From NCBI GenBank assembly GCA_964567185.1, contig CAZMKZ010000001.1, positions 13,507 through 77,506 on the forward strand: a stretch of 64,000 nt of DNA, in the 5' to 3' direction. Position 1 is the first letter of the stretch; each line of letters opens with the position of its first letter. This DNA is from an uncultured Thermodesulfobacteriota bacterium (GTDB taxonomy: Bacteria; Desulfobacterota; GWC2-55-46; JADFVP01). The notes beneath the pieces were generated by a model. That model searched no databases, was not told where the DNA came from, and saw nothing but the letters and a program-made list of their open reading frames with translations. Of the stretch, positions 34,270 through 53,271 are shown piece by piece. The translations under genes were made by a program, and so were the position numbers.

Positions 34270-34343
34270 TGGAGCGGGCGATGGGAATCGAACCCACGTG
34301 TGCAGCTTGGGAAGCTGCCATTCTACCATTGAATCACGCCCGC
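34270..34343 (-). tRNA. tRNA-Gly (anticodon CCC)
   Basis: Reverse complement is GCGGGCGTGATTCAATGGTAGAATGGCAGCTTCCCAAGCTGCACACGTGGGTTCGATTCCCATCGCCCGCTCCA. Cloverleaf fits: GCAGC/GCTGC anticodon stem, loop TTCCCAA, TTCGATT T-loop, encoded CCA. Confidence 0.9.
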
Positions 34344-36788: not shown

Positions 36789-37910
36789 ATGCAGCGCATA
36801 TTCGCCCTCCTCGAAAGAGACCTCAGAAAATTCATCCGCAACCCATTTGTGGTAGCCGTCTCCATAGCCATGCCCATTGTCTACCTCATCATAATGGGTT
36901 CGAGCTTTCAGGGCGAACTGAAGCGGCTTTCCGTGGCCGTGGTGGACCAGGACAACGGCGAGTACGCAAGGACGGTTATTGATAACCTGCGCGCCATTGC
37001 CCAGGGCCCGGCCTCCATACGTGTCCTTACTTTAACGGACAAGGCCTCTGCCATGAAGGGCCTCAAAGACGGCCTTTTCAAGGCCGTCGTGGTCCTGCCG
37101 CGGGATTTTTCCAGACGGGCGCTACGCGGCGAGACCGCCGTTGTAGGTCTTTTTCTCGATAATGTGGAGACCATCCCCTCGGCCACAATAGAGAGAAGCG
37201 TCCGCGGCGCCGTCGCCAATGTTTACGGTGATTTTGTCTCCATGCGCGCCGAGCGCGGCAAGGTCATCGTGCGCTCGATAAACACCTACAGAAAGATAGA
37301 TTACGACCAGGGCCTTATACCCGGCGTGGTAATCATGGCCATATTCATCGGGGCCATGACAACGGGCGTTTTCAACGTGGTGATGGACAGGTTTCTCGGT
37401 ATTGACGAGAGCTACTTCCTTACGCCGCTGACAAGGCTCGACATAGTCGTCTCTCTTGTCATAAGCGGGCTCCTCGTGACCACCGTGCTTGCCGTAATCG
37501 TACTCTTTCTCTCTACCCTCACGGCGGGGCTCCAAATCTGGACCTTTCTTACCATCACGGGTTTTCTCTCGGTGCTGGCAATATTCGTCCTGACGGCGCT
37601 TTCGCTTCAGGGGCTTATGTTCCTCGTCATGGGCAGGGCCACGCATCCGAGGATACTGGGCATAATGGGCGGTTTTCTCAATGTCATATTCTTTTTTCCA
37701 AGCGGGGCCATATATCCTGTTGAGAGTTTTCCTCCCTGGCTGCAGGCCTTTGCCAGCGTAAACCCCGAGACATACTCGGTGCACGCCCTGAAGGCCGTGC
37801 TTTTCAAGGGCGCCGGCCTGCACGCCATAAGCAACGACCTGCTCTTTCTGGCGGGTTTTTCCTTTGTTTCCCTTACGGTGAGCATCATAACCTTTAAACG
37901 CTCTCTTTAA
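36789..37910 (+). CDS. ABC-2 family transporter permease
   Basis: 373 aa with an N-terminal TM helix, a large periplasmic loop, then 5 TM helices, as in ABC-2 permeases. Confidence 0.75.
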   Translation: MQRIFALLERDLRKFIRNPFVVAVSIAMPIVYLIIMGSSFQGELKRLSVAVVDQDNGEYARTVIDNLRAIAQGPASIRVLTLTDKASAMKGLKDGLFKAVVVLPRDFSRRALRGETAVVGLFLDNVETIPSATIERSVRGAVANVYGDFVSMRAERGKVIVRSINTYRKIDYDQGLIPGVVIMAIFIGAMTTGVFNVVMDRFLGIDESYFLTPLTRLDIVVSLVISGLLVTTVLAVIVLFLSTLTAGLQIWTFLTITGFLSVLAIFVLTALSLQGLMFLVMGRATHPRILGIMGGFLNVIFFFPSGAIYPVESFPPWLQAFASVNPETYSVHALKAVLFKGAGLHAISNDLLFLAGFSFVSLTVSIITFKRSL

Positions 37911-37941
37911 CCGCGCCCTGTAACACTTTGTAAAAATTCCC

Positions 37942-37970
37942 TTGACAGGGCCGTGAGGATATATTATTGT
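37942..37970 (+). promoter_or_regulatory. candidate promoter TTGACA-17 nt-TATTGT driving the riboswitch transcript
   Basis: -35 hexamer at 37942-37947 and -10 at 37965-37970, about 25 nt upstream of the riboswitch P1 stem. Confidence 0.45.
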
Positions 37971-37995
37971 CATAGCACAATTGAATAAATGGATA

Positions 37996-38150
37996 TCTTA
38001 TCCAGAGTGGTGGAGGGACTGGCCCGATGAAACCACAGCAACCGGTGCATCACTGCATGTCAGGTGCTAAATCCAGCAGGGTTTGCAAAAACCCTGAAAG
38101 ATAAGAAGAACTAAGAGACCCTCTTCTTATCCCAAGAAGAGTTTTTTTTT
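37996..38150 (+). ncRNA. SAM-I (S-box) riboswitch with intrinsic terminator expression platform
   Basis: TCTTATCCAGAGTGGTGGAGGGACTGGCCCGATGAAACCACAGCAACC...CTGAAAGATAAGAAG. The GGTGGAGGGACTGGCCCGATGAAACC core matches the SAM-I kink-turn/P2-P3 consensus, and P1 is TCTTATC/GATAAGA. A terminator CTCTTCTT-ATCCC-AAGAAGAG plus T9 lies at 38121-38150, and its 5' arm can alternatively pair with the P1 3' strand. Confidence 0.85.
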
Positions 38151-38218
38151 GCTCGTTTTTCGAGATGGCTTTAAGGCGAGTTTCTGTTTTTAACGTATCA
38201 GGCACAGGAGAAACCTAG

Positions 38219-39472
38219 ATGAAGTACATGAAAGGATTAAAGTGCAGGGAGTGCGGGAAGCGCTATCCCCTGGAACCGATCCATGTCTGCGAGTTCTGTT
38301 TCGGGCCCCTTGAGGTGGACTATGATTACGAGAAGATAGGCAAGTCCATTACCAGAGACATCATTACCACCAGAGCCCCTAATATGTGGAGATACAGGGA
38401 GTTGCTTCCCATAGACGCCGAGCCCACGGTGGGCAACAACTCCGGATTTACGCCCCTTGTAAGGGCCTATAACCTGGGCGAGGCCCTGGGCGTTAAAGAA
38501 CTGTACATAAAGAACGACGCCGTTAATTTCCCGACCCTCTCTTTCAAGGACAGGGTGGTCTCCGTGGCCATCTCAAGGGCCAGAGAGATGGGCTTTGACG
38601 TCATCGCCTGCGCCTCAACGGGCAACCTGGCCAACTCCGTTGCCGCCAACTCCGCGGCCTGCGGCCTTGATAGCTATGTCTTCATACCCTATGACCTTGA
38701 GCAGACCAAGATAACGGGAACCCTTATCTACGGCACTAACCTCGTGGGCATAAAGGGGACCTATGACGAGGTGAACAGGCTCTGCAGCGAGATAGGCGGC
38801 AAATACGGATGGGCCTTTGTAAACATCAACATCAGACCCTTTTATGCCGAGGGCTCCAAGACATTCGGCTACGAGATAGCCGAGCAGTTGGGCTGGAAGC
38901 TCCCGCAGCACGTTATTGTGCCCATGGCCGGGGGCTCTCTCATCACAAAGATATGGAAGGCCTTCAAGGAGTTCAAGGCCCTTGGTTTTGTCGATTCTCC
39001 GCCGGCGAAGATATACGGCGCGCAGGCAACGGGATGCGCCCCCATAGTAACGGCTGTTAAGGAAAAGAGCGAGCTCATCCGTCCGGTCATGCCCGATACT
39101 ATCGCCAAATCCCTTGCCATCGGCAACCCGGCCGACGGCTTTTACTCCGCAAGGGCCATCAGGGAGAGCAATGGCTGGGCCGAGGACGTTTCAGATGAAG
39201 AGATAATCGAGGCCATGAAGCTCCTTGCCGAGACAGAGGGCATTTTTGCCGAGACAGCCGGCGGCGTTACCGTGGGCGTGACTAAAAAACTCATCGAGCA
39301 GGGCAGGATACCCCGTGACGAGTCCATAGTCATCTCCATTACGGGCAACGGCCTTAAGACTCAGGAGTGCCTGGCGGGAAAAATCGCCGAGCCCCCTGTA
39401 ATAGAGGCTAAACTTGCCGAGTTCGACGCCCTGCTTGAGGGCGGCTCCGTGCGGAAGACGGCGGTAAAATAA
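38219..39472 (+). CDS. threonine synthase-like PLP enzyme (fold type II) with an N-terminal zinc ribbon; candidate O-phosphohomoserine-dependent homocysteine synthase (MetM-like, MA1715-like)
   Basis: CRECGKRYPLEPIHVCEFCFGPLEV zinc ribbon. PLP lysine motif FPTLSFKDRVVSV. ThrC-like length of 417 aa. First gene after a SAM riboswitch. Confidence 0.8.
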   Translation: MKYMKGLKCRECGKRYPLEPIHVCEFCFGPLEVDYDYEKIGKSITRDIITTRAPNMWRYRELLPIDAEPTVGNNSGFTPLVRAYNLGEALGVKELYIKNDAVNFPTLSFKDRVVSVAISRAREMGFDVIACASTGNLANSVAANSAACGLDSYVFIPYDLEQTKITGTLIYGTNLVGIKGTYDEVNRLCSEIGGKYGWAFVNINIRPFYAEGSKTFGYEIAEQLGWKLPQHVIVPMAGGSLITKIWKAFKEFKALGFVDSPPAKIYGAQATGCAPIVTAVKEKSELIRPVMPDTIAKSLAIGNPADGFYSARAIRESNGWAEDVSDEEIIEAMKLLAETEGIFAETAGGVTVGVTKKLIEQGRIPRDESIVISITGNGLKTQECLAGKIAEPPVIEAKLAEFDALLEGGSVRKTAVK

Positions 39473-39677
39473 GGGACGGGGCGTGATCGGGGGAGGCCCG
39501 TAGAGTATTGGCGCGGGGCAGGATTAACCGGCAGGGCCTGTGCAATATAACAAGGGCTGCCCGGTAGAGAGGCGGGTTCGGCTTGTAATAGTGACCCTCT
39601 TTCTGTTATCATTAGGGTTTAAGAAATATAAAAATTTTCCCTCTAAGAGGGGCGGTTTTCTTAAGGAGGTTTTTTTT

Positions 39678-40673
39678 ATGACGGACCATTTCATAGAGGA
39701 TAAGAGCCATAAGGTAGACCTTGACCTTGAGAACCTCAGCGGTAAGGTTAACTTCGGCGACCTCAAATCCGGGGGGTTCATAAAGCAGCGCCAGAAGGAC
39801 CTCTTTACCGTAAGGCTCCGCTGTCCCGGCGGCAGGATGACTACGGACAAGCTCGTGGAGATATCGAGGCTCGCAAAAAAATACAGCAAAGAGGGTGTGG
39901 TGCACTTCAGCTACCGCCAATCCCTTGAGATACTATATGTGGATTATAAGGACTTTCACGCCCTTGTGGGCGAGCTTGAGAAGATAGGTCAGAAAGTGGC
40001 CTCATGCGGGCCCCGTGTAAGGGTGCCCACTGCCTGCGGCGGATGCGAGTATAACCCCAACGGGCTTATAGACGCGCAGAAGATGGCCCGCATGGTGGAC
40101 GGTAAGTTCTTCGGAACAAATACGCCGCATAAGTTCAAGACCTCTTTTTCGGGCTGTCCCATAGATTGCTCAAGGACCGTTGAGATGGACCTCGGTTTTC
40201 AGGGCGTAGTGGACCCCGAGTGGGAGCAGGACCTCTGCACGGGATGCACCATCTGCTCCGAGGCCTGTAAAGAGGGGGCCATTGAGGCCCACCCCGATAC
40301 AGGAGAACCAATCTTCGACGTTAGTAAATGCCTTTACTGCGCCGACTGCATACGGGCCTGTCCCACCGAGGCGTGGAAACCCGGCAAGCACGGCTTTCTT
40401 GTGCGCATTGGCGGCAAACATGGCCGTCATCCCCTTGAGGGCGTTGAAATCTGCCGTTTCCTACCGGAGGAAAAGGTAAGCGACGCCATAGAGATGACCG
40501 TCAGGTGGTATAAAGAAAACGGCAAGAGTTTCGAGAGGATAGGGCACACCCTGCAGAGGGTGGGCATGGACGGTTATCTTGACCACATGGCCCCGCTCTT
40601 CGGTGATTATGCCGTTAGACCAAAGCATCCGCCCACGGACCGTCCGCTGATCAATAAGCCCGAAGGGGCCTGA
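39678..40673 (+). CDS. small dissimilatory-type-like sulfite reductase (Dsr-like, alSiR-type) with an inserted 2x[4Fe-4S] ferredoxin domain (start ATG 39678 with RBS AAGGAGG)
   Basis: NIR_SIR-type Cys cluster SCGPRVRVPTACGGC ... GCPIDCSRT. Ferredoxin motifs CTGCTICSEAC and CLYCADCIRACP. Confidence 0.7.
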   Translation: MTDHFIEDKSHKVDLDLENLSGKVNFGDLKSGGFIKQRQKDLFTVRLRCPGGRMTTDKLVEISRLAKKYSKEGVVHFSYRQSLEILYVDYKDFHALVGELEKIGQKVASCGPRVRVPTACGGCEYNPNGLIDAQKMARMVDGKFFGTNTPHKFKTSFSGCPIDCSRTVEMDLGFQGVVDPEWEQDLCTGCTICSEACKEGAIEAHPDTGEPIFDVSKCLYCADCIRACPTEAWKPGKHGFLVRIGGKHGRHPLEGVEICRFLPEEKVSDAIEMTVRWYKENGKSFERIGHTLQRVGMDGYLDHMAPLFGDYAVRPKHPPTDRPLINKPEGA

Positions 40674-40788
40674 TTAGCCGCGCTTCATTGGGTCGGGTAT
40701 GGATAATGGGGGGTAATCGGCGCAGTGGGTTTTCAGCTTTCGCCGGGAACCCGAAACATAACAGATCAGGACAAACGGTAAGGTTGAT

Positions 40789-41028
40789 ATGAGTGAGATA
40801 AAGGCAAAGGACAGCATCGATTTAAGGGGCGTCATGTGTCCCACAAACTTTGTAAAGACCAAGCTCAAGCTCGAGGCCATGAACCCCGGCGAGATACTCG
40901 AAGTGGTGCTTGACAGCGGCGAGCCTATCGCCAACGTGCCGAAAAGCGTCAAGGAAGAGGGACACAAGATAGTCAAGGTAAGCAAAGACGACGGCTCATT
41001 CAGGATTTTGATAGAGGTCTCTGAATAG
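40789..41028 (+). CDS. TusA/SirA-family sulfurtransferase-like protein
   Basis: 79 aa. ...IDLRGVMCPTNFVKTKLKLEAM... is a Cys-Pro TusA-like motif in a two-layer alpha/beta fold. Confidence 0.65.
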   Translation: MSEIKAKDSIDLRGVMCPTNFVKTKLKLEAMNPGEILEVVLDSGEPIANVPKSVKEEGHKIVKVSKDDGSFRILIEVSE

Positions 41029-41063
41029 CCCCTAATAAAGTTTTCAAGTACAAGGAGGAGAGT

Positions 41064-41348
41064 ATGTCAGTAAAGGTGAGGATACCCACACCCCTGAGGA
41101 AGATTACAAAGGACAACGACGAGGTCACTGCCGACGGGGCCACGGTCTCCGAGGTAATAGACGACCTGGAGAAAAACTATCCGGGAATAAAGGAGAGGAT
41201 ATGCGAGGCCGACGGGAACCTCCGCCGCTTTGTAAACCTCTATCTCAATGACGAGGACATTCGCTTCAAGGATAACCTCGCTACTGCACTGAAAGACAAC
41301 GATGAACTCTCCATCATTCCGGCCATCGCCGGAGGAGGTGGCCTTTGA
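41064..41348 (+). CDS. ThiS/MoaD-family sulfur-carrier protein (CysO/HcyS/MetO-like) whose C-terminus ...AIAGGGG-L* needs proteolytic exposure of Gly-Gly
   Basis: 94 aa beta-grasp pattern with a glycine-rich C-terminus followed by a single Leu before the stop at 41346-41348. Confidence 0.7.
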   Translation: MSVKVRIPTPLRKITKDNDEVTADGATVSEVIDDLEKNYPGIKERICEADGNLRRFVNLYLNDEDIRFKDNLATALKDNDELSIIPAIAGGGGL

Positions 41349-41581
41349 AAAAAAAGGTCTATCTAACCTATCCTCCGGAGAGGGTGAGAGAGCCTCTTCT
41401 CTGTGAGTGCGTGCGCAGGTTCAATGTCGTAACCAACATAAGGCAGGCCTCTGTTACGGACAAGATAGGCATCGTGGCCCTTGAGCTCGAAGGCGAGCCC
41501 ACGGAGATAGAAAAGGCCATGGACTTTTTTACTGAAAACGGCGTGAAGGTCGAGCCTATTGAGATGAATATTATCGAGTAG
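41345..41581 (+). CDS. stand-alone NIL-domain protein (the MetN C-terminal-type domain). TTG start overlaps the carrier-gene stop by 4 nt (TTGA); RBS GGAGGAGGTG
   Basis: KVYLTYPPERVREPLLCECVRRFNVVTNIRQASVTDKIGIVALELEGEPTEIEKAMDFFTENGVKVEPIE aligns by eye to the MetN NIL domain (LTFTGE...PLISEL.RRFGVDVNIL.GNIE...G.L.VELEGD...ALAYL.E.GV.VEVL). Confidence 0.7.
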   Translation: MKKKVYLTYPPERVREPLLCECVRRFNVVTNIRQASVTDKIGIVALELEGEPTEIEKAMDFFTENGVKVEPIEMNIIE

Positions 41582-41679
41582 CGCCCTCTCACCTTTCCCC
41601 GTCCTTGTCCAAAGGACGGGGAGCCTTGCAAATTCAACTCCCATTGGATTCTTTTCCTTGAAATCACTGCATATTATTC

Positions 41680-41706
41680 TTGACAAACCCGCTAAGGTAT
41701 TATAAT
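41680..41706 (+). promoter_or_regulatory. possible internal promoter (TTGACA-15 nt-TATAAT) upstream of the CysM-like gene, preceded by a 10-bp hairpin CCCCGTCCTT-GTCCA-AAGGACGGGG at 41594-41619
   Basis: Hexamers and hairpin seen directly. The spacer is short at 15 nt. Confidence 0.3.
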
Positions 41707-41810
41707 TTAAAAACTTGATTGTTTTAGTAAGGTAATAAAAAATGCCTTGTAAAAAGCGAGGTTTTAAGGCGCCTCTCCATAATGCTTAACATAATTCCAA
41801 GAGGCCTTGA

Positions 41811-42767
41811 ATGAGCAGCCATACCTTGAAGAGTTTTGACGCAGGGAACGAGTTTGCCATCCCGAAGGCGAGGTCCTCGGCCCTTGACCTTGTGGGCAAT
41901 ACGCCCCTTGTGAGGATAAACAGCATTACAGCGGGTCTTCCAGCCGGCGTAGAGGTATACGCCAAGCTCGAGTCCGCCAACCCCGGGGGCTCTGTAAAGG
42001 ACAGGCCGGCGCTCCGTATGATAGAAGACGCCGAGAAGAGCGGAAGGCTTACCAGGGATAAGATAATACTGGACTCCACATCGGGAAACACGGGCATTGC
42101 CTATGCGTGGATAGGCGCCGTAAAGGGCCATCGCGTAGAGCTGGTGGTTCCGGAAAACGTCAGCGCCGAGAGAAAAAAGATACTCGACGCCTTTGGGGCC
42201 AAGGTCATATTTTCAAGCCCCTTCGAGGGCTCCGACGGTGCGATACGTCTTGCCTGGAAGCTCTACGTGGATAACCCCGAAAAGTACTGCAAGCTCGATC
42301 AGTACAATAACCCCTCCAACCCCCTTGCCCATTACCATGGCACGGGAGTTGAGATAATCGAGCAGACAGGGGGCAGGATCACGCACTTTGTCACCACCAT
42401 AGGCACGGGCGGCACCATAATGGGGACCATGCGCAGGCTCAAGGAGTTTAACAGCAATATCGAAGTAACCGCCGTTGAGCCCGACAACCCCATGCATGGG
42501 CTTGAGGGCCTGAAACACATGGCCTCGTCCATAGTGCCGGGCATCTATCACGAGGACTCGCTGGACAGGAAGATACCGGCCTCCACCGAAGAATCTTACG
42601 AGATGGCCAAGAGGCTAGCCCGTGAAGAGGGCCTTCTTGTGGGGCAGTCATCGGGGGCGGCCATGCTCGGAGCGCTCAAGGTGGCCATGGAGCTTAAAGA
42701 GGGTCTTGTTGTGACAATATTCCCCGACGGCGGAGATAAGTACCTCTCCACAAGCCTCTGGGATTAA
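41811..42767 (+). CDS. cysteine synthase-like PLP enzyme (CysM/CysK family, fold type II)
   Basis: GNTPLVRINSI...VYAKLESANPGGSVKDRPALRMIEDAEKSGRL...DSTSGNTGIAYAWIGAVKGH is the classic CysK/CysM N-terminal half, including the PLP lysine. Confidence 0.85.
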   Translation: MSSHTLKSFDAGNEFAIPKARSSALDLVGNTPLVRINSITAGLPAGVEVYAKLESANPGGSVKDRPALRMIEDAEKSGRLTRDKIILDSTSGNTGIAYAWIGAVKGHRVELVVPENVSAERKKILDAFGAKVIFSSPFEGSDGAIRLAWKLYVDNPEKYCKLDQYNNPSNPLAHYHGTGVEIIEQTGGRITHFVTTIGTGGTIMGTMRRLKEFNSNIEVTAVEPDNPMHGLEGLKHMASSIVPGIYHEDSLDRKIPASTEESYEMAKRLAREEGLLVGQSSGAAMLGALKVAMELKEGLVVTIFPDGGDKYLSTSLWD

Positions 42768-43010
42768 GGGCTACGGGGAGCCCGGGCAGATTATTATTTT
42801 AAATGGCTGACAACAGCCGGTATTGATTTTTTTGGCCTGTCTTTTTTTGAAAAAAGAAGGCCACGCGGTTTTTTTTGATGGTTTCGGCTTCACGGGTTAT
42901 GCTTTGCTTTGTCCATCGTGCAAGTGTTTCCATGCGGCTACAGGCCGCTTATAAATGTGATTAAAGGGGCGTATTGCCCATAACGTGTAAATAAAGATAA
43001 GGGGCAAGTA

Positions 43011-43463
43011 ATGGGTCTACTCTCAAAGTTCAAGAAAAAGAATAAGCTGAAGGTGCCTAAGGACGTTTACGATATCATCATTGAACATGCCAGAGAGGAG
43101 TATCCCCATGAGTGTTGCGGAGTTCTCATAGGTAACGCCATGATGGGCAGAAAGATATTCTACGCCGACAAATGCACGAACCTGAACCGCGAGAGCGCAC
43201 ATAACAGGTATCTCATGGACCCCAAGGAGATAAATCTTGCCGATAAGGGTGCGCGCTCGCAGAGCCTTGAGCTTATGGGCTTTTATCACTCTCATCCGGA
43301 CCATCCGGACAGGCCCTCGGAGTACGACAGGGAGATGGCCCAGCCCGGATACTCATATATAATAGTCTCCGTAAAGGGCGGTACCGAGTTCTCCTTGAAG
43401 TCATGGACCTTTAACGAGGACGATGAACCCTTCAAGGAAGAGCCCGTGGAGATAGGCAAATAA
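43011..43463 (+). CDS. JAMM/MPN+ family metalloprotease (Mec+/HcyD/QbsD-like)
   Basis: E...ECCG, HSHPDHPDRPSEYD (JAMM motif HxHx7Sx2D). 150 aa. Confidence 0.85.
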   Translation: MGLLSKFKKKNKLKVPKDVYDIIIEHAREEYPHECCGVLIGNAMMGRKIFYADKCTNLNRESAHNRYLMDPKEINLADKGARSQSLELMGFYHSHPDHPDRPSEYDREMAQPGYSYIIVSVKGGTEFSLKSWTFNEDDEPFKEEPVEIGK

Positions 43464-43584
43464 AAACCCGGAGGGGTATGTTTGCAGTATACTTTCGGCG
43501 TTAGCGTCCCTGTAATGGGGTGAGTTTTCTTTTTTTGCCGCGATACTACATTTTGTTTTTGCATAGAGGGGGTTAGAGGTCAAG

Positions 43585-44394
43585 ATGGATTTTACCGATG
43601 AACAGATAGAGCGTTACTCAAGGCATATCATACTTCCGGAGGTAGGCGGAAAGGGGCAGGCAAAGCTCCTTGAGTCCAGGGTCTTTGTCCTCGGCGCGGG
43701 GGGGCTCGGTTCTCCGGCCCTGCTTTACCTTGCCGCGGCGGGCGTGGGCACCATAGGGGTTGCAGACGGCGACGTTGTGGATGTAAGCAACCTTCAGCGC
43801 CAGATAATACACGACAACAATACCGTTGGTATGCCAAAGGTGGATAGCGCGCGAAAGTCCATTGAGGCCCTTAATCCCGATGTTGAGGTAAAGACCTTTA
43901 ACGGCAGACTTGATACGGAGAACATCAGAGAGGTCCTTCGGGATTACGATGTGGTCCTTGACGGCTCTGATAATTTTCCAACGCGCTACCTCATGAACGA
44001 CGCCTCTTTTTTCGAGGGCAAGACCCTTGTCTCGGGGTCCATGTTCAGGTTTGACGGGCAGGTCTCTGTCTTCAAGCCGCAGGAGGGCTTTCCCTGTTAC
44101 AGATGCCTCTACCCGGAGCCCCCGCCAAAGGGCATGGTTCCGTCCTGTCAGGAGGCCGGTGTGCTTGGGGCCCTTGCGGGAGTTATAGGGGTACTGCAGG
44201 CCGTGGAGGCCATAAAAGAGATACTCTCCATCGGCAAATCCCTTGCCGGCGAGCTCTTGATATTCGACGCCCTTGCCATGAGTTTCCGCAAGGTCAAGGT
44301 GCGCACAGACCCTGATTGCGCGCTCTGCGGCGGGAATGCTACCATAAAGGAGCTCTCGCTCTATGAGCAGGCCCCATGCGAGCTGCGTACCTGA
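43585..44394 (+). CDS. ThiF/MoeB/HcyF-type E1-like adenylyltransferase (no rhodanese domain)
   Basis: RYSRHIILPEVGGKGQAKLLESRVFVLGAGGLGSPALLYLAAAGVG nucleotide-binding motif. C-terminal Zn motif CYRC...CALCGG. Confidence 0.85.
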   Translation: MDFTDEQIERYSRHIILPEVGGKGQAKLLESRVFVLGAGGLGSPALLYLAAAGVGTIGVADGDVVDVSNLQRQIIHDNNTVGMPKVDSARKSIEALNPDVEVKTFNGRLDTENIREVLRDYDVVLDGSDNFPTRYLMNDASFFEGKTLVSGSMFRFDGQVSVFKPQEGFPCYRCLYPEPPPKGMVPSCQEAGVLGALAGVIGVLQAVEAIKEILSIGKSLAGELLIFDALAMSFRKVKVRTDPDCALCGGNATIKELSLYEQAPCELRT

Positions 44395-44461
44395 TTCGGC
44401 TTTTCGGACTTATGCCGCAAACAGGGGACGGAGAAAGCGGTCTTTTACCTGAGGCGGTTGA

Positions 44462-45697
44462 GTGGTATTGAAAAGCCTGGATTACTTCAAGAACCCCGGA
44501 GCCCTTAAGATAGACCTTATGCTGAGGGGGGCGGCCATAGAAGACCCCCTTGTGAAGGCGCATGCCTGCGGGGCCTCTGGCATAGATATACTCCTGCCTA
44601 AAAAGACCCTCGTAAACATCCCCTGCGAAGACTGGTTTACCGTGCGCTCCCCTTATCTCATTAAAAAGTCTGAAAAGGGGTATGTCCTTACAAACGGCAA
44701 GGCCGAGGTCAGGGTAAGCATACTTCCGCCGCCGAAGTTTTACGGACTGAAGACAAGTTCAGGCGTAAGGCTTGGAGAAATAGCCAGCACTCACGGGAGT
44801 TACACCGTCATAACGCCCGACCAGAGGTGCGCTTTTTTTAAATCAAGCGCCCAGTGCCGTTACTGCGCGGGAAACTTCAGGTCCGACGCCGCCGCGTCCG
44901 GCGCGCGCGTCTATACAGTAGACGAGGTATTAGAGACAGTAAAAGCGGTATTCAGGGAGAGGGCCTCCGGGATAATATACCTCTCAATAGGTTTTGCCGA
45001 GGGCGATGACGGGGGTATAAAATTTCTTGAGCCCTATGTAAGGGCCATTAAGGGGCATTTTAACTGCCTTGTCGCAGTAGAGGCCCTGCCCCCCGCGCGA
45101 AACGAGTGGATCGACAGGGCGTACGCCAGCGGCGTTGATTCACTGCTCTATAACCTTGATATCTTTGATAAGGAGCTTTTTTCCATAATCTGCCCGGGCA
45201 GGGCCGGCCTCATAGGCAGGAAGAGGACCCTTGAAGCCCTGAAATACGCCGCGGGTATCTTCCCTAACGGCACGGTGGCCTCGCACCTCATTGTGGGGCT
45301 TGAACCGCCGGGTTCCACTATCATGGGCATAGATTATCTTACGGATATCGGCGTAGTGCCCATACTGCCCATATTCCGGCCTTCAAGGGAGAGGCCCCTT
45401 GATGTTACGGACCTTCATGCCGAGGTGATTATACCGGTATATCAGCACCTGTACCGGTCCTTGAAGAAAAAGGGCATTAACTTCAACTGGGTCCGCGACA
45501 TAAGCATGGTGACAACCCCCGTGGAGGGCAGGTTCCTCCTTGGGGAAAAAGAGGGCTCAGCCTCTCTGCTTGATAATTTTTACGGCTCAAAGCTCGGCCT
45601 TAAGACGGCATGGGGGCTCTCGGCCCTTCGAAGGCGGCTGCGGGTAAAAAAGCCCGCCAATGAAGAAAACCCCCCAGGCGGGTCTGAAAAGACATAA
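44462..45697 (+). CDS. uncharacterised protein with the Cys triad CAFFKSSAQCRYC (CX8CX2C). Possibly a non-canonical radical-SAM-like TIM-barrel enzyme, or alternatively the COG1900/DUF39 homocysteine-synthesis protein
   Basis: GTG start. 411 aa. Glycine-rich stretch IYLSIGFAEGDDGG about 35 aa after the Cys triad, and later ...VPILPIFRPSRERPL, reminiscent of radical SAM beta-strand motifs. No canonical CX3CX2C. Confidence 0.35.
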   Translation: MVLKSLDYFKNPGALKIDLMLRGAAIEDPLVKAHACGASGIDILLPKKTLVNIPCEDWFTVRSPYLIKKSEKGYVLTNGKAEVRVSILPPPKFYGLKTSSGVRLGEIASTHGSYTVITPDQRCAFFKSSAQCRYCAGNFRSDAAASGARVYTVDEVLETVKAVFRERASGIIYLSIGFAEGDDGGIKFLEPYVRAIKGHFNCLVAVEALPPARNEWIDRAYASGVDSLLYNLDIFDKELFSIICPGRAGLIGRKRTLEALKYAAGIFPNGTVASHLIVGLEPPGSTIMGIDYLTDIGVVPILPIFRPSRERPLDVTDLHAEVIIPVYQHLYRSLKKKGINFNWVRDISMVTTPVEGRFLLGEKEGSASLLDNFYGSKLGLKTAWGLSALRRRLRVKKPANEENPPGGSEKT

Positions 45698-45710
45698 AGG
45701 GAGTATTACC

Positions 45711-47135
45711 GTGAGAGTGGAGATAGACAGGAGGCCCATATCAATAATCATCGCCAATAAGGCGCTGAGGCCCCTTTTTTTCCTTCTCCTTACGGTGGGA
45801 TTTTTCTCATTCCTATACCTCCCCGTGCCCGAGGGGCTGGGGCAGGGCGGCATGAGGGCCATAGCCGTCTTTCTTCTATGCCTTGTGCTCTGGGTCTCAA
45901 ATGCCGTTCCCGTGGCCATTACGGGGCTCTTCGCCATAGTCCTCGTGCCGCTTCTGGGCATACTGCCAAGGGGCGATACGTATTCCCTATTCGGCAATGA
46001 GGCCGTGTTTTTCATACTCGGCGCCTTTATCCTCTCCGGGGCGGTCATGCAGTCCGGCCTCTCGAACAGGGTGGCCCTGCGGCTGATGGAAAAATACGGC
46101 GGCTCTCCGAAGAGGCTTATCATAAGCATATTTCTTCTCGCCGCGGCACTCTCATTCGTAATGAGCGAGCACGCCGTTGCGGCCATGCTCTTTCCCATAG
46201 TGCTTGAGATATCAAAGAGCCTGAAGCTCCGGCCCGGCGTTTCCAACTACGGAAAGCTCCTCTTCTTTGCCCTTGCCTGGGGTTCGGTCATAGGCGGGGT
46301 GGGGACCTTTCTCGGCGGAGCGCGTGTGCCCCTTGCCATGGGCATTCTGAAGGAGACCACGGGCTCTACCATAGGCTTTCTGGATTATACCGTGGCCGTC
46401 GCGCCCCTTGTCGTGGTGCTGCTGGTGGTGGGATACATCGTGCTGACAAGGTTCTTTCCCATTGACATCGAGGGCGTAGAGAGCGCGCACGAGGTCATTG
46501 TAAGGCGCGCCCGCGCCCTTGGCAAGGTGCGCCCGGCAGAGTACGCCGTAGGGGCCATACTCCTTATTACCATCTTTTTCTGGGTGACCATTGGCAAGAC
46601 CGTGGGCCTTGCCGCCATCGCCATGGTCTCGGTGATGGCCCTCTTTGTATTGAAGCTCGTAAAGTGGCGTGAAATTGAGGAGTATGTGAACTGGGGAATA
46701 ATCCTCATGTACGGCGGGGCTATTATCCTCGGCACGGCCCTTGACAGGAGCGGCGCCGCCAAATGGATGGTAGACGCCATTATGACTCAATGGGCCGAGA
46801 CGCCGGTGACGGTGCTGGCGCTCTTTTCACTCCTGGCCATACTGCTCACCGAGTCCATGAGCAACGCCGCCGTCATCGCCGTGCTCCTGCCCGTGAGCAT
46901 CGGCATGGCCGGAAGCACCAATATGAGCCCGGAAGTCCTTACCTATGCCGTGGCCATTCCGGCGGGTCTGGCCTTTATGCTGCCCATGAGCACGCCGGCC
47001 AACGCCATCGCCGTATCAAGCGACTACATATCCGTGCGCGATATGGCAAAGGGAGGGGTGATAATGTTCATCACCTCATGGGTCACCTTTAATCTCATGG
47101 CCCATTTTTACTGGCCCCTCATAGGGCTAAGGTAG
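45711..47135 (+). CDS. SLC13/DASS-family anion permease (Na+/sulfate symporter-like). Start at GTG 45711 with RBS AAGGGAG; the track start 45660 overlaps the upstream gene
   Basis: Polytopic. The PVPEGLGQGGMRAIAVFLLCLVLWVSNAVPVAITGLF hairpin-loop motif is typical of DASS transporters. Confidence 0.65.
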   Translation: MRVEIDRRPISIIIANKALRPLFFLLLTVGFFSFLYLPVPEGLGQGGMRAIAVFLLCLVLWVSNAVPVAITGLFAIVLVPLLGILPRGDTYSLFGNEAVFFILGAFILSGAVMQSGLSNRVALRLMEKYGGSPKRLIISIFLLAAALSFVMSEHAVAAMLFPIVLEISKSLKLRPGVSNYGKLLFFALAWGSVIGGVGTFLGGARVPLAMGILKETTGSTIGFLDYTVAVAPLVVVLLVVGYIVLTRFFPIDIEGVESAHEVIVRRARALGKVRPAEYAVGAILLITIFFWVTIGKTVGLAAIAMVSVMALFVLKLVKWREIEEYVNWGIILMYGGAIILGTALDRSGAAKWMVDAIMTQWAETPVTVLALFSLLAILLTESMSNAAVIAVLLPVSIGMAGSTNMSPEVLTYAVAIPAGLAFMLPMSTPANAIAVSSDYISVRDMAKGGVIMFITSWVTFNLMAHFYWPLIGLR

Positions 47136-47224
47136 GGTTGGGGCAAAACCTGGCGGGTTTATGGGAAAAAATACCGATAAACCCGCCATTATTGTTTACC
47201 TTCCAGAGGATTTAGGTTAAAATA

Positions 47225-47689
47225 ATGGGCAATAAAATACTACTCGTTCTATCGACTCACTCGTACTCGGACCAGGCCGTTGAATATGCTGTCACGAGGG
47301 CCGCGCAGGAGGGCCGTGTGCTTGTGGCCTTCTTTCTGCTTGAGTCGGAGCTTGCCAGAGAGGCCTCGGAGAGGTTCTCGGATATCGGCTTTACAGGCGA
47401 CAAGCCTTCGGCCACGCTCACGGAGTCTCTTATGCGTGAGTACAGGCAGAGGGGCTACGAGGCCCTTGGCAGGGCGCAGATAAGGGCCATGGAGGAGGGC
47501 GTGAGCTTTGAGCCTCTTCTGGATGAAGGGCCTTATGTCTCCACCATACTCGATGCCATAGAGGTCAATGATATAGGACTTGTGGTTATACAGAAGCGCA
47601 GGGAGAGGTCTCTTTTCAAGTACTTTAAAAAGGGTCTTTCCGCAGAGGTGAAAGAGATGGCCTCCTGTGAGGTCGTTATAGTGGAGTAA
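47225..47689 (+). CDS. universal stress protein (UspA family)
   Basis: 154 aa Usp alpha/beta fold. NKILLVLSTHSYSDQAVEYAV...CEVVIVE. Confidence 0.75.
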   Translation: MGNKILLVLSTHSYSDQAVEYAVTRAAQEGRVLVAFFLLESELAREASERFSDIGFTGDKPSATLTESLMREYRQRGYEALGRAQIRAMEEGVSFEPLLDEGPYVSTILDAIEVNDIGLVVIQKRRERSLFKYFKKGLSAEVKEMASCEVVIVE

Positions 47690-47724
47690 TGTAAATTCAT
47701 CACGGTTGAAAGGGAGGATTCAAA

Positions 47725-48432
47725 ATGGCAGTAAAGAAGTGGTCTGAAGAAGAACTTAAAGAGGTATCCGCGGAGCTTGAAGACAAGGGGCCGCAGGCGG
47801 CCATTCAGTGGGCCGTGGACAATTTTGAGAGGCAGGACCTGTCCCTTGCCTGTAGCTTCGGCGCCGAGGATGTAGCCCTGGTGGATATGCTCGTGAAGAT
47901 AAAACCTGACGCCAGGATATTTTATCTTGATACAAACAAGCTCTTTAAGGAAACCATTGATGTTATGGAGCGCCTTAAGGAGAAGTACCACATAAACCCT
48001 GAAAAATACTGCACAAAGATGAGCCTTGAGGAGCAGGCCGAAAAATTTGGACCTGAGCTCTGGAAAAAAGACCCCAAGCAGTGTTGCGATATCAGGAAGA
48101 TAAAACCTCTTAGAGAGGCCCTGTCTGGGCTCAGCGCATGGATAACTGGCATAAGAAGGGACCAGGCCCCTGCAAGGGCCAATGCCCCTGTCGTTGGCTG
48201 GGATTCCATGTTCAACCTGGTGAAGATAAACCCCCTTGTCAAATGGACGAGCGACGATGTATGGGATTATATCCGCGCCAATGACGTGCCCTACAATGTG
48301 CTCCACGACAGGAATTATCCCTCCATCGGCTGTGAGCCATGCACCAATGAGGTAAAACCCGGCGAAGACCCCAGGGCCGGAAGATGGGCTGGTTTCAAGA
48401 AGACCGAGTGCGGCCTTCATGACAAATCATAG
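47725..48432 (+). CDS. cysH: assimilatory adenylyl-/phosphoadenylyl-sulfate reductase (CysH family, Fe-S type)
   Basis: PAPS_reduct fold (SFGAEDVALVDMLVKI). Fe-S Cys pairs KQCCDIRK and IGCEPCT. Catalytic C-terminal ECGLH. Confidence 0.85.
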   Translation: MAVKKWSEEELKEVSAELEDKGPQAAIQWAVDNFERQDLSLACSFGAEDVALVDMLVKIKPDARIFYLDTNKLFKETIDVMERLKEKYHINPEKYCTKMSLEEQAEKFGPELWKKDPKQCCDIRKIKPLREALSGLSAWITGIRRDQAPARANAPVVGWDSMFNLVKINPLVKWTSDDVWDYIRANDVPYNVLHDRNYPSIGCEPCTNEVKPGEDPRAGRWAGFKKTECGLHDKS

Positions 48433-48520
48433 ACATAACCAGTATGAGGTTGCTGCTTCAATATATTGATTTATCAGCCTTTATGTCTTTTAACCCACAG
48501 CATAAGGAGGTTCTCTAAAA

Positions 48521-49684
48521 GTGGAGTCATTGATACCGCCCCATGGCGGCGTGCTTGTTAACAGGGTCGTAGAGGGTAAGGCCCGTCTTGATATGGAAAA
48601 AGCCTCTCTTGATATGAATACCCTCACCCTTAATGCGAGGGAGATATCAGACCTTGAGATGATAGCCACGGGCGGGTTCAGCCCCCTCGAGGGGTTCATG
48701 TGTCATGACGATTATCACTCTGTCATGGATACCATGACGCTGATAAACGGCCTGCCCTGGACCATACCCGTAACCCTTTCTGTAACCACGGAGGAGGCGG
48801 CCGGACTTAAAGAGGGCGTGGATGTTGCCCTTAATAACGAAAAAGGGGAGCTTCTCGCTATCCTTCATCTTGAGGAGATTTTCAAGCATGACAAGGAAAA
48901 AGAGGCCCTTCGAGTATACGGCACCGCCGAAGACGCGCACCCGGGGGTGAAAAACGTCTATGCAATGGGCGAGATGCTTCTTGGCGGCAAGGTCTCCATG
49001 CTCAAACGCACCGAGTACGGCGAGTTCAATGAATACCGCAGGGACCCGCTTGAGACAAGACAGCTCTTCAAGAAGAACGGCTGGAGGCGTGTTGTGGGCT
49101 TTCAGACAAGAAACCCCATACACAGGGCCCATGAGTACATACAGAAGTGCGCCCTTGAGACAGTTGACGGTCTTCTCATACACCCCCTTGTGGGCGAGAC
49201 AAAGGCCGACGACATACCTGCCGATGTGCGGATGCGTTGCTACACGACCCTTATGGAGAAGTATTACCCCGCCGACAGGGTAGTGCTCTCCGTATACCCG
49301 GCGGCCATGCGCTACGCAGGCCCCCGTGAAGCCGTCTTTCATGCCCTGATTCGCAAAAATTACGGCTGTACGCATTTTATCGTAGGCAGAGACCACGCAG
49401 GGGTGGGCGGGTATTACGGCACCTTTGACGCCCATCTCATATTCGACCAGTTCGAGCCCGAGGCCATAGGCATAGCGCCCATGTTCTTTGACTATACCTT
49501 TCATTGCAGGAGCTGCGGCGGCATGGCCTCGTACAAGACCTGCCCCCACGATTCATCGGAGCATATTACCCTTTCGGGAACAAAGGTAAGGGAGATGCTG
49601 AGGGCCGGAACGTGCCCTCCGCCTGAATTCTCAAGGCCGGAGGTGGCAAAGGTCCTCATTGAAGCCATGAAGCCGGCGGATTAA
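48521..49684 (+). CDS. sat: sulfate adenylyltransferase (ATP sulfurylase)
   Basis: GTG start with [26 protein letters not shown] and GRDHAGVG motifs. Confidence 0.9.
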
Positions 49685-49710
49685 GGACGGCTCTCAACCA
49701 GCGTCATTAA

Positions 49711-49740
49711 AAGGCCCCTCATGGAGGGGTCTTTTTTTTT
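49711..49740 (+). terminator. rho-independent terminator after sat (GGCCCCTC-ATG-GAGGGGTC plus T10)
   Basis: Perfect 8-bp GC-rich stem followed by ten T residues. Confidence 0.7.
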
Positions 49741-50002
49741 GGGCAATAATTGCAGTCCGCCTTAATCGTTCTTTTTTTTACCTTTTAATCTTGTTCTCAT
49801 GTTATATGATGAATATTAATAGTATCTCTGAAGTATTATGGCCGCTTTTTTGTCATTATGTCGTAATGCCCTTCGCGGGGGGCGGGGTAGAGCCGGCTGG
49901 TTTACAGCAGGGGGCTTGAGGGTTTGGCGCTCCATGGCCGGTCTTTTGTCATGAGAGCCGATTTACGTAACCTGTACTCAATAATAAGTGTGTCCATGAC
50001 TT

Positions 50003-50776
50003 ATGATTCGTAAGGGTCTCAGCTGTTTTTGGATAATACTGCTTCCACTGCTCTTTTTATACGGTTGCGGCGCCACGCACGGGCCGTATTATATCGCGCC
50101 CAACCCCTATTCACCCGTGCGCACCATTGCCGTCCTGCCCGTATACAACATCACCAATGACGTCGGCGGCGCCGATATGGTGCGCAGGCAGGTATACAAG
50201 GAGTTTGTATACAGGCATTACAGCGTCATGCCCCTTGCAGAGTCGGACCGCATGCTAAGGGAGAAAATGGGCATTACCCTCGGCGGTCAGCTTGAGTATA
50301 CCAACGCGCAGGCAGTGGCAAAGGCGCTTGGCGTGGATGGCCTTGTCTACGGGTATCTTCTTAATTTTGACGATATTACTACCGGGGTATATAATGTAAA
50401 AGAGGTAAGAGCGGGGTTTAAACTCATCGACGGCTCCACCGGCGGGGTAATCTGGGCTAATGGCGGCGGTGTGAAGAGCTTTTACGTGGCCGGCAGGGCC
50501 GGGACCGCCGTGACGATACTCAAGGAGATTGGTTCCGGCCGCGAGGTGCCCTCCCTCATTAGCGGGCTCAAGGATATACCTGGACTTAAGGACTGGCATA
50601 TAATACGGGTCATATATCTTGAAAAACTGGAGCATGCGGCCGCTTTCTCCCTTGGAGAGGAGATAGTGACGAGTGTATTTCGAGTTCACCTCAAGTTTGA
50701 GACAAACGCGCTTTTAAGGAGAGTATTAAGGTCTCTGCCCGCCGGACCGGGCGAACTGGCCCCGGCGAGCGGCTGA
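50003..50776 (+). CDS. lipoprotein (lipobox LFLYGC), possibly DUF799/GNA1162-like
   Basis: Signal peptide plus lipobox. IAVLPVYNITNDVGGADMV resembles the DUF799/LpoB-type lipoprotein motif. Precedes a CsgG-like gene. Confidence 0.45.
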   Translation: MIRKGLSCFWIILLPLLFLYGCGATHGPYYIAPNPYSPVRTIAVLPVYNITNDVGGADMVRRQVYKEFVYRHYSVMPLAESDRMLREKMGITLGGQLEYTNAQAVAKALGVDGLVYGYLLNFDDITTGVYNVKEVRAGFKLIDGSTGGVIWANGGGVKSFYVAGRAGTAVTILKEIGSGREVPSLISGLKDIPGLKDWHIIRVIYLEKLEHAAAFSLGEEIVTSVFRVHLKFETNALLRRVLRSLPAGPGELAPASG

Positions 50777-50815: not shown

Positions 50816-51802
50816 ATGGTCAATATATCGCCGCACAGGTTCAAGGGTTCATGCGTCCCTGTTTTTTTGGCCCTTCTCTCTATTATCTTTCTCGCCGGGT
50901 GCGGGCCTACCATAAAGGGTTCCGTAAAGGAGGACGTAAGCAGGACAGGAGAGTCGGGGAGGCTGGAAGCTGAAGGCCTTGATTACAGGGGGCCTTCATA
51001 CAACGTGGCCATTATCGCCTTCAGGGACAAGACCCCGGGCAGGGCCCTTGGCGTTGCAAGGGCCGCTACGGATATTCTGAGGACTATTGTAAAGCACGCG
51101 GGTCTTGAGCCCATTGTCCTCACTGAAGATGACCTGCGCGAGCAGGAGAGCCTCAGCGCCTTTCAGGAGACGGGCGTTCTCAAAAAGGGCAAGAAGAACG
51201 TGCTTGCAGGTTATGACTCCGTGGACTTCAGGATATCCGGGGCCGTGACTGCCTACTCGGCTGTTGAGGAGAGCACAAACGTCTTGCTGGCGCAGTCCAA
51301 GACCGTCATCTCAAGGGTGCAGGTGGATTATGCCCTCGTAGACGTAGAGACGGGCAAGAGCCTTGTGGCGGATTCGGGCATGGGCGAGTACAGAAAGACC
51401 ACGGGAGGGCTCCTTGGTCTGGGCTCAAAGTCTACCTTTGACATGAGCCTGCGAGACGGGGCGCTTCGCGACGCCCTTACAAAGGCCATGACAAGGATGG
51501 TGGCAAAACTGAACACTCTGCCCTTCAGGGGGCGCGTCCTATCCGTGGAGGGCAATACCCTTTATATCAGGGCCGGCACAAAGAGCAGGCTAGCCACGGG
51601 CACCGTCCTCTCTGTGTACCGGCGCGGTAAAGAGCTTGTAGACCCGGATACTGGCAGGGTAATCGGCAGGGCAGAGTCAAAGATAGGCGAGGTCGTATTG
51701 AGCTCGCATCAGGATGAGAGCATCTCGCGCGCTATCATCAAAAGCGGAAGCGGCTTCAGGGCCGGAGACGTTATAAGGACCTCATCGGGGGCCGCCGGGT
51801 GA
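50816..51802 (+). CDS. CsgG-family outer-membrane lipoprotein with a C-terminal SH3-like extension
   Basis: Lipobox FLAGC. YNVAIIAFRDKTPGRALGVARAATDILRTIVKHAGLEPIVLTEDDLREQ matches the CsgG pattern (krvaV.pFenktg...lg..ltdml.taL...g.f.vveR..l..l..Eq). Confidence 0.7.
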   Translation: MVNISPHRFKGSCVPVFLALLSIIFLAGCGPTIKGSVKEDVSRTGESGRLEAEGLDYRGPSYNVAIIAFRDKTPGRALGVARAATDILRTIVKHAGLEPIVLTEDDLREQESLSAFQETGVLKKGKKNVLAGYDSVDFRISGAVTAYSAVEESTNVLLAQSKTVISRVQVDYALVDVETGKSLVADSGMGEYRKTTGGLLGLGSKSTFDMSLRDGALRDALTKAMTRMVAKLNTLPFRGRVLSVEGNTLYIRAGTKSRLATGTVLSVYRRGKELVDPDTGRVIGRAESKIGEVVLSSHQDESISRAIIKSGSGFRAGDVIRTSSGAAG

Positions 51803-53037: not shown

Positions 53038-53271
53038 GCCCCCCTCATGAGCGCTATCCCATAATCGCACGCAACCCCCTTTTTATTCTTTGTCAATAAA
53101 AACAGCACCGCTTAATAAGCTGTTTTAACAGCATTTTTTTGCTATTTCGAGTTTGCTTTCTCAAGCCTGCCCCCGGTGACCGTGGTCACACCCATCTGCA
53201 CCCCTTTTTTGTATAATCAGGTTGTGGATTAAGAGTGTTGTTCTTGTTGACTGAAGAAAAGGAGGTAAGCA

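Follow-up and report, generated by a model that had tools for sequence, protein, structure and literature searches.

A 64,000-nucleotide stretch of DNA from an uncultured Thermodesulfobacteriota bacterium (GenBank assembly GCA_964567185.1, contig CAZMKZ010000001.1, positions 13,507 to 77,506; hereafter the window, whose numbering is used unless a related locus is named) carries an 11.8-kb sulfur-assimilation block on its + strand, in which an S-adenosylmethionine (SAM)-I riboswitch is followed by 13 genes and closed by a terminator at 49709-49740. Judging from the families to which the encoded proteins belong, we consider it likely that this cluster couples assimilatory sulfate reduction to the protein-thiocarboxylate-dependent synthesis of homocysteine, and probably also of cysteine. 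The window is part of a Joint Genome Institute (JGI) metagenome contig whose nearest relatives are uncultured Thermodesulfobacteriota. Domains were called with Pfam and NCBIfam, and RNA elements with Rfam. A preliminary description of the block, made from the DNA letters, had assigned domains to all 13 open reading frames (ORFs), and the profile searches bore these assignments out, apart from a family identity suggested for one 411-residue protein that is discussed below. The limits that it had given to the block also held, with the riboswitch at the head, a strong terminator at the end and same-strand genes between them.

A predicted homocysteine synthase paired with a riboswitch and a carrier

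The first gene of the block (38219-39472) encodes a ThrC homologue with an N-terminal four-cysteine zinc ribbon (PALP 234 bits; TIGR00260 294 bits). From its gene context, we infer that this protein is a carrier-thiocarboxylate-dependent homocysteine synthase similar to MetM. A scan of one genome per species yielded 80 loci with ThrC-like relatives at 66-91% identity. A search of these loci with the 13 window proteins found the order metM-sir-tusA-carrier-NIL-cysM-JAMM-thiF-rSAM-DASS-usp-cysH-sat complete in about 17 Thermodesulfobacteriota ('Deltaproteobacteria') genomes, all of them uncultured. The full order is kept in metagenome-assembled genomes that are independent of one another, even where the first protein is only 76% identical, and it is therefore not a chance arrangement. 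Rearranged versions of the cluster occur in Nitrospira and other lineages, and the core of ThrC-like, carrier and NIL genes recurs in Zetaproteobacteria, Nitrospira and other lineages. The zetaproteobacterial order, found also in the cultured Mariprofundus micogutta ET2 (locus L067), is metM-carrier-NIL-cysK-thiF-[sir::tusA]-[rSAM::DASS]-cysH-cysD, in which square brackets mark fused genes.

We counted gene co-occurrence in the 45 loci with at least 6 kb of downstream DNA. The carrier gene was present in all 45, the NIL gene in 44, a CysK/M-type enzyme in 42 and ThiF in 40, followed by the radical SAM protein (37/45), TusA (36/45) and the DASS permease (34/45). A covariance model built from eight aptamers placed a SAM-I riboswitch ahead of the first gene at 66 of the 80 loci, which span Thermodesulfobacteriota, Zetaproteobacteria, Nitrospira and anammox bacteria, and most of the remaining 14 loci end before the upstream DNA. 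This constant pairing with a SAM riboswitch and a carrier is why we read the ThrC homologue as a MetM-type enzyme, and it agrees with the earlier proposal that the end product is directed towards methionine. In the anammox loci, the ThrC-like gene and the carrier are the only genes behind the riboswitch, which indicates that the carrier pairs with the ThrC homologue itself.

Several observations weigh against this assignment. The protein passes the NCBIfam cut-offs for the 'threonine synthase' equivalogs (TIGR00260, as above; NF006050, 311 bits versus 303), its solved relatives are genuine threonine synthases that score at about 200 bits, and its likeness to Streptomyces albulus MetM was judged by gene context rather than by direct sequence comparison. 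In the databases, all close homologues bear the name 'threonine synthase'. Taken at face value, these matches and names would make the protein an ordinary threonine synthase, with the carrier, E1 and JAMM protease serving only the CysM step, in the style of Mycobacterium tuberculosis CysO, and the riboswitch present for the sake of other genes. We consider this very improbable, because it would leave a threonine synthase gene first behind a SAM-I riboswitch in 66/80 loci from several phyla and next to a carrier gene in every one of the 45 loci counted, and because the anammox loci retain the ThrC-like gene and the carrier without any CysM. Moreover, MetM is commonly misannotated as threonine synthase (GapMind 2026). 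The 'threonine synthase' names of these homologues are probably systematic misannotations, as are the varied names given to the NIL protein, which are listed below.

The sulfur carrier and its partners

The carrier (41064-41348; PF02597, 67 bits) is a ThiS/MoaD-type protein of the CysO kind. Among solved structures, M. tuberculosis CysO (3DWG_C, 1.6e-24) is the closest to it, with MoaD proteins far behind, and no MoaE gene is present; these findings rule against the possibility, raised in the preliminary description, that the carrier is a MoaD paralogue of a molybdopterin pathway. The C terminus consists of a conserved ...PAIAGG followed by a three-residue tail, GGL. In relatives, the tail varies from zero to six residues, consistent with trimming. 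One locus, L044, has a carrier joined to the ThiF E1 rather than to NIL.

A JAMM/Mec-type metalloprotease (43011-43463; PF14464, 94 bits), whose translation contains the HxHx7SxxD motif (HSH here), and a 269-residue ThiF/MoeB-type E1 adenylyltransferase (43585-44394; PF00899, 267 bits) are candidates for maturing and charging the carrier. The E1 lacks a rhodanese domain: the MoeZ model aligned only at positions 15-271 of 392, its adenylation half, and remained below the cut-off. The block also encodes a TusA/SirA-type sulfurtransferase (40789-41028; PF01206, 79 bits) with the conserved cysteine in RGVMCP. For class 4e operons, Iyer, Burroughs and Aravind 2006 (PMC1779556) noted that every E1 without a rhodanese domain occurs together with a SirA/TusA protein, which they predicted to take over the task of the rhodanese. 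In M. micogutta, a TusA domain forms the C terminus of a 785-residue sulfite reductase with two NIR_SIR modules (L067 4351-6708). This TusA::sulfite reductase fusion, which looks new on the sequences compared, speaks for a direct transfer of sulfur from one protein to the other.

The second PLP (pyridoxal phosphate) enzyme of the block is a CysM-type cysteine synthase (41811-42767), which passed the TIGR01136 cysKM model (349 bits versus 344). CysM-type and JAMM genes tend to occur together, with both present in 23 loci, neither in 19 and only three loci discordant, a raw count that ignores kinship. Clusters without JAMM carry a CysK-type enzyme instead of CysM; CysK-type synthases that pass TIGR01139 lie directly under the SAM riboswitch in many related clusters (for example, L067 2383-3315, L028 4358-5287, L065 1584-2513 and L018 11918-12826). 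It is plausible, and predicted here, that one carrier serves both PLP enzymes, the ThrC homologue and CysM.

Three features of this part of the cluster fit the thiocarboxylate pathway less well. CysM scores higher against E. coli CysM (2BHS, 234 bits), which uses sulfide or thiosulfate, than against M. tuberculosis CysM (3DKI, 199 bits), which uses O-phosphoserine and CysO, and it falls narrowly under the cysM equivalog cut-off (TIGR01138, 376 bits versus 394). In addition, among the clusters with a CysK-type enzyme, those that have no CysM-type enzyme have no JAMM either, and yet their carriers end in Gly-Gly plus one residue (C, K or R). As zetaproteobacterial carriers end in GG-X with no JAMM gene nearby, JAMM is not universally coupled to the MetM step.

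Alternatively, both PLP enzymes may use free sulfide that comes from the sulfite reductase, while the ThiS-like protein, E1 and JAMM share the sulfur regulon but serve another purpose, for instance the conjugation of proteins in the manner of SAMP, the thiolation of tRNA or the synthesis of a cofactor. Such a division would account for the kinship of CysM to the E. coli enzyme and its replacement by CysK-type synthases in many related clusters, for the passing score of the carrier against the SAMP1 model (69.5 bits versus 60) and for the resemblance of the E1 to the SAMP-activating UbaA. We regard it as improbable. Profile searches of the cluster and its flanks found no E2-like, MoaE, ThiG or tRNA-thiolase gene in or near the cluster; the best solved relative of the carrier is CysO; the adjacency of ThrC-like, carrier and NIL genes is conserved, and CysM co-occurs with JAMM; and precedent systems that work without free sulfide contain the same parts. 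We therefore retain the reading in which the carrier supplies sulfur for amino acid synthesis.

Sulfate uptake and reduction genes

As the preliminary description had proposed, the block contains a complete sulfate-to-sulfide module, consisting of a DASS permease, ATP sulfurylase, an Fe-S adenosine 5'-phosphosulfate (APS) reductase and a small sulfite reductase of the Fsr-C/Dsr-like type. The sulfite reductase (39678-40673; 331 residues; NIR_SIR, NIR_SIR_ferr and Fer4) is a siroheme-type enzyme with a 2x[4Fe-4S] ferredoxin insert. Among solved structures, it is closest to the C-terminal half (residues 332-614) of an F420-dependent sulfite reductase, 7NPA (E = 1.9e-37). For its start we rejected GTG 39540; ATG 39678, which has AAGGAGG 8 nt upstream, is the most likely start codon. 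The DASS/SLC13 anion permease (45660-47135; PF00939, 205 bits; TIGR00785, 254 bits) is presumed to import sulfate. An alternative start lies at about 45711, and the JGI gene call is 474 residues long. Next comes a member of the universal stress protein family (Usp; 47225-47689; PF00582, 34 bits).

CysH (47725-48432) was identified as a thioredoxin-dependent APS reductase (TIGR02055, 247 bits versus 235; NF002537, 275 bits). Its translation contains the CC...CxxC Fe-S motif (KQCCD and GCEPC) and ECGLH. Because CysH is an Fe-S APS reductase, no APS kinase is needed. ATP sulfurylase (Sat; 48521-49684; NF003166, 572 bits versus 387) is the last gene, and the strong terminal intrinsic terminator behind it (49709-49740) comprises a hairpin with a 12-bp stem at 49709-49735 and then a T-run.

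SAM control and transcription units

The SAM-I aptamer (RF00162) occupies 37995-38107 and matches the model over its full length (1-108 of 108) at 94 bits, compared with a gathering threshold of 44.4 (E = 2.7e-21). A putative promoter, TTGACA-17-TATTGT (37942-37970), which matches the consensus at 10/12 positions, precedes it, and the leader is conserved at 77-85% in loci L003-L006. Downstream of the aptamer lies an expression platform (38121-38150) with a terminator stem at 38121-38141 followed by T9. The 5' arm of the terminator, TCTTCTTATC (38122-38131), is an exact 10-nt complement of the 3' strand of P1, GATAAGAAGA (38100-38109), and can pair with it instead to form an antiterminator. Folding the leader with or without the 5' half of the aptamer gave the terminator or the antiterminator, respectively, and the two structures are mutually exclusive. 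By its architecture, the leader is a classical transcription-terminating OFF switch, for which repression upon SAM binding is predicted. Searching 37700-50100 with Rfam (E <= 1) revealed no second riboswitch or other RNA family inside the cluster.

The preliminary description spoke of a riboswitch-led cluster. The riboswitch does stand at its head, but SAM control over all the genes was not supported, because conserved terminator and promoter signals follow the NIL gene. The gap between NIL and cysM is the only intergenic gap conserved in sequence among close relatives. It contains a 10-bp GC-rich hairpin (41597-41621), at whose position about 10 of 17 relatives have canonical terminators with T7-9. 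Beyond the hairpin is a tandem repeat (41679-41736) that contains a promoter-like element, TTGACA (41680-41685)-N15-TATAAT (41701-41706), of putative function; in 16 of the 17 clade loci, the consensus before cysM is TTGACA-N15-TATAA[T/A/G]. The two repeat copies, CTTGA-N8-CTAAGGTATT, lie at 41679-41701 and 41714-41736 and occur nowhere else in the window. They look like two imperfect palindromic operators, a putative assignment, and the cluster contains no regulator gene. When all gaps were compared among relatives, no other intergenic gap had a conserved promoter-like site.

Given this hairpin or terminator and the promoter-like repeat between NIL and cysM, the block probably forms at least two transcription units. 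SAM would directly gate metM-sir-tusA-carrier-NIL only, and a second unit from cysM onwards (cysM-JAMM-thiF-rSAM-DASS-usp-cysH-sat) is probably under separate control. Two details sit uneasily with this division: the post-NIL hairpin of the window is not followed by a T-run, such that transcripts from the riboswitch promoter may read through into cysM, and the spacer of the internal promoter, at 15 nt, is unusual. The whole 11.8-kb block may instead be one operon shut off by SAM, as might be expected of 13 contiguous genes on one strand with no further riboswitch among them and a single strong terminator, at the block end. We find this doubtful in view of the T7-9 terminators of relatives at the post-NIL position and the tandem repeat that is conserved before cysM while the other gaps are unconserved. 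The division into two units remains our preferred reading. The gap between JAMM and thiF has a hairpin with a T-run in 9 of 16 relatives (L007, L020, L050 and others), which is less uniform, and a weak one in the window (43505-43530). They may mark a third boundary between transcription units or act as an attenuator.

The NIL protein is a near-obligate partner of the carrier

The gene after the carrier encodes a stand-alone NIL domain protein of 78 residues (41345-41581; PF09383, 56 bits), and the two reading frames share 4 nt (TTGA, 41345-41348), which hold the start of NIL and the stop of the carrier. The NIL protein is a homologue of the C2 domain with which MetN binds methionine (3DHX, 8.6e-5). 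All 66 orthologues compared have its residue N31, which corresponds to MetN N295; in MetN, the N295A mutation reduces L-methionine binding to undetectable levels (PMC6233128). No cysteine is conserved among the 66 orthologues, and we therefore rejected a role for NIL as a cysteine-based sulfur relay. Because the asparagine is invariant and no cysteine is conserved, we prefer a role in ligand sensing or as an adaptor: most likely, NIL partners the carrier as an ACT-like domain that binds a methionine-type ligand, rather than relaying sulfur.

In 12 loci from several lineages, NIL is fused in frame directly after the Gly-Gly of the carrier (L018, L028-L030, L032, L033, L037, L040, L053, L057, L059 and L061). 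For a carrier of this fused kind to be adenylated, NIL has to be removed first. Together with the presence of NIL in nearly all loci counted, the fusions suggest that it is a near-obligate carrier partner, a pairing that looks new. A search for NIL homologues returned only stand-alone relatives of 78 residues from the same clade. Database entries for these proteins carry several names: 'FeS-binding protein', 'L-aspartate semialdehyde sulfurtransferase ferredoxin' and 'MetN'.

A variant radical SAM protein

The 411-residue protein (44462-45697) had been described as carrying a cysteine triad and linked to DUF39. The triad proved real, as a Cx8CxxC radical SAM motif (C123/C132/C135) whose three cysteines are conserved; the DUF39 identity was not upheld and we rejected it, as the protein has no DUF39/COG1900 match and Pfam and NCBIfam place it in Radical_SAM (NF045502 'variant_rSAM', 166 bits versus 125). 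An AlphaFold model (mean predicted local distance difference test score, pLDDT, 78) contains a TIM-barrel core in addition to the three-cysteine cluster motif, with a beta-rich N-terminal domain of about 110 residues. We conclude that the protein is a variant radical SAM enzyme with a predicted fold like that of lipoyl synthase. A sequence search of the PDB with this protein gave no match. Its family is small: at E <= 1e-30, a search of 1.84 billion representatives gave 82 clusters. Unlike lipoyl synthase, biotin synthase, HydE, HydG and ThiH, which have Cx3CxxC, the protein has Cx8CxxC, carries an extra N-terminal domain, contains no conserved auxiliary-cluster cysteines and is fused in relatives to a DASS permease or a JAB protease.

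The permease fusion was found in 11 zetaproteobacterial loci, in which the radical SAM protein is joined to the N terminus of the DASS permease. They comprise M. micogutta ET2 (L067 6729-9365, 878 residues) and loci L052, L058, L062, L069, L072, L074-L076, L078 and L080. A single metagenome contig (L083 719-2446) encodes a JAB protease with the radical SAM protein joined on behind it, and a carrier gene lies next to this fusion. The radical SAM-DASS permease fusion, with its 11 loci and the one JAB fusion beside it, appears from the sequences to be new.

The preliminary description had also seen kinship with the methanogen DUF39/NIL-ferredoxin pathway. Were the cluster a bacterial version of that pathway, homocysteine would be made from aspartate semialdehyde, and the presence of a NIL protein, some homologues of which are named 'L-aspartate semialdehyde sulfurtransferase ferredoxin' or 'FeS-binding protein', might be taken to favour it. 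We give this next to no chance. Only the NIL domain is shared: the 411-residue candidate for DUF39 is a radical SAM protein, NIL has neither a ferredoxin domain nor a conserved cysteine, and COG2122 is absent. Membership of the DUF39/NIL-ferredoxin pathway is thereby refuted at the level of gene content.

Proposed pathway and its implications

In the pathway that we propose, sulfate would be taken up by the DASS permease, converted to APS by Sat and reduced to sulfite by the Fe-S CysH, and the sulfite would then be reduced by the small Fsr-C/Dsr-like sulfite reductase. The CysO-type carrier, made with a GGL tail after its conserved Gly-Gly, would be trimmed by JAMM and adenylated by the ThiF-type E1 that lacks a rhodanese domain. 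The carrier thiocarboxylate (carrier-COSH) might form from free sulfide or, more likely, through the TusA cysteine, which would replace the missing rhodanese domain. The ThrC homologue would then convert carrier-COSH and O-phosphohomoserine to homocysteine, and the CysM-type enzyme would use carrier-COSH with O-phosphoserine or O-acetylserine to form cysteine, with JAMM freeing the amino acid from the carrier adduct. When SAM is abundant, the riboswitch would terminate transcription of metM-sir-tusA-carrier-NIL.

Three conserved proteins, NIL, the radical SAM protein and Usp, fall outside these steps, which counts against the pathway as drawn. One joint proposal that would give most of them a place is that NIL senses methionine or homocysteine, or is a C-terminal pro-domain of the carrier that JAMM releases in the 12 fused forms, that the radical SAM protein acts on or gates the carrier system and sulfate uptake, and that TusA takes sulfur from the sulfite reductase in the manner of DsrC. 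As a whole we put this forward tentatively and think it rather unlikely to hold. If it were true, NIL would provide protein-level feedback on carrier activation and would be a common element of the carrier/MetM and DUF39/NIL-ferredoxin routes, and hand-over through TusA would let sulfur pass from sulfate to homocysteine without any release of free sulfide.

If the proposed pathway is correct, the homocysteine route through a carrier and a ThrC homologue is widespread, extending to uncultured Thermodesulfobacteria, iron-oxidising Zetaproteobacteria, Nitrospira and anammox bacteria. Its key gene is labelled 'threonine synthase' in all these lineages, which would affect auxotrophy predictions and metabolic models. 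The cluster offers a handle on the role of NIL in non-canonical homocysteine synthesis, on the transfer of sulfur from a sulfite reductase to a carrier in systems whose E1 lacks a rhodanese domain, and on the role of a radical SAM protein that can be fused to a permease. Mariprofundus micogutta ET2 is a cultured organism with a related cluster that can be used for tests.

Flanking genes

The genes on either side of the block are unrelated to it and encode an ABC efflux system, an aldehyde dehydrogenase, lipoproteins and sensor kinases. No other methionine or cysteine genes were found among the flanking genes of the window. A tRNA-Gly(CCC) gene (34270-34343, - strand) lies upstream of the ABC efflux genes and has the same relative position in locus L004. 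On the other side, a GNA1162-like lipoprotein gene precedes three successive ORFs of 328, 412 and 251 residues (50816-54027, + strand) that have no Pfam match at E <= 1e-5.

Comparison with known systems

The preliminary description did not recognise the composition of the cluster as a described system. This was partly right: our literature searches returned no description of the exact composition, of the carrier-NIL pairing or of the radical SAM-DASS pairing, which is weak evidence as key subscription papers lay outside their coverage. The logic of the cluster, by contrast, has precedents in class 4e operons, in MetM/MetO (2024) and in CysO/CysM/Mec.

The NIL protein recalls the C2 domain of the methionine importer MetNI, as it is a small NIL domain that has kept the methionine-binding asparagine, and both this domain and the NIL-ferredoxin protein MA1822 of the DUF39 pathway tie NIL to methionine or homocysteine metabolism. 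Unlike in those proteins, NIL here stands alone or is fused behind the carrier Gly-Gly, with no ABC ATPase, ferredoxin domain or DUF39 partner. Similar to the M. tuberculosis CysO/CysM/Mec/MoeZ system, the cluster has a carrier nearest to CysO and a CysM-type gene followed by a JAMM gene, two genes that co-occur across loci, but it lacks the rhodanese domain of MoeZ and its CysM is closer in score to the E. coli enzyme.

In S. albulus, MetM and MetO, with Mec and MoeZ, carry out a thiocarboxylate-dependent synthesis of homocysteine from O-phosphohomoserine (Hasebe et al. 2024, as cited by GapMind 2026 and PMC12172450), and a SAM riboswitch is reported upstream of metM (PMC12172450). The cluster shares with this system a ThrC homologue beside a ThiS/MoaD-type Gly-Gly carrier, an upstream SAM riboswitch, and a JAMM protease and E1 that would mature and charge the carrier. 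It differs in having TusA in place of a rhodanese domain on the E1, in adding a sulfite reductase and NIL to the unit, and in having the genes for CysM, the variant radical SAM protein and all of sulfate uptake and activation next to it.

The class 4e ThiS/MoaD-JAB-E1 'sulfur metabolism' operons of Iyer and colleagues have a characterised case in the HcyS/HcyD/HcyF/MetY pathway of Wolinella succinogenes (Krishnamoorthy and Begley 2011; this pathway and MetM/MetO are cited here through GapMind 2026, PMC12172450, PMC5764234 and PMC1779556). As in these operons, a carrier that extends past Gly-Gly at its C terminus, a JAB protease, an E1 without rhodanese domain and a SirA/TusA protein stand together with a sulfate transporter, an APS/3'-phosphoadenosine 5'-phosphosulfate (PAPS) reductase, ATP sulfurylase and a sulfite reductase. 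In place of the fold-type I O-acetylhomoserine sulfhydrylase MetY, the cluster has a fold-type II ThrC homologue, which presumably uses O-phosphohomoserine, and CysM; no fold-type I PLP enzyme of Cys/Met metabolism (MetY type) was found among the 13 genes or the flanks. Its transporter is of the DASS rather than the ABC type, APS kinase is absent, and NIL and the radical SAM protein are added. Judged by gene content, the logic of the cluster is already known: a class 4e frame in which MetY would be replaced by a MetM-type enzyme, as in Streptomyces, together with CysM and JAMM, as in mycobacteria.

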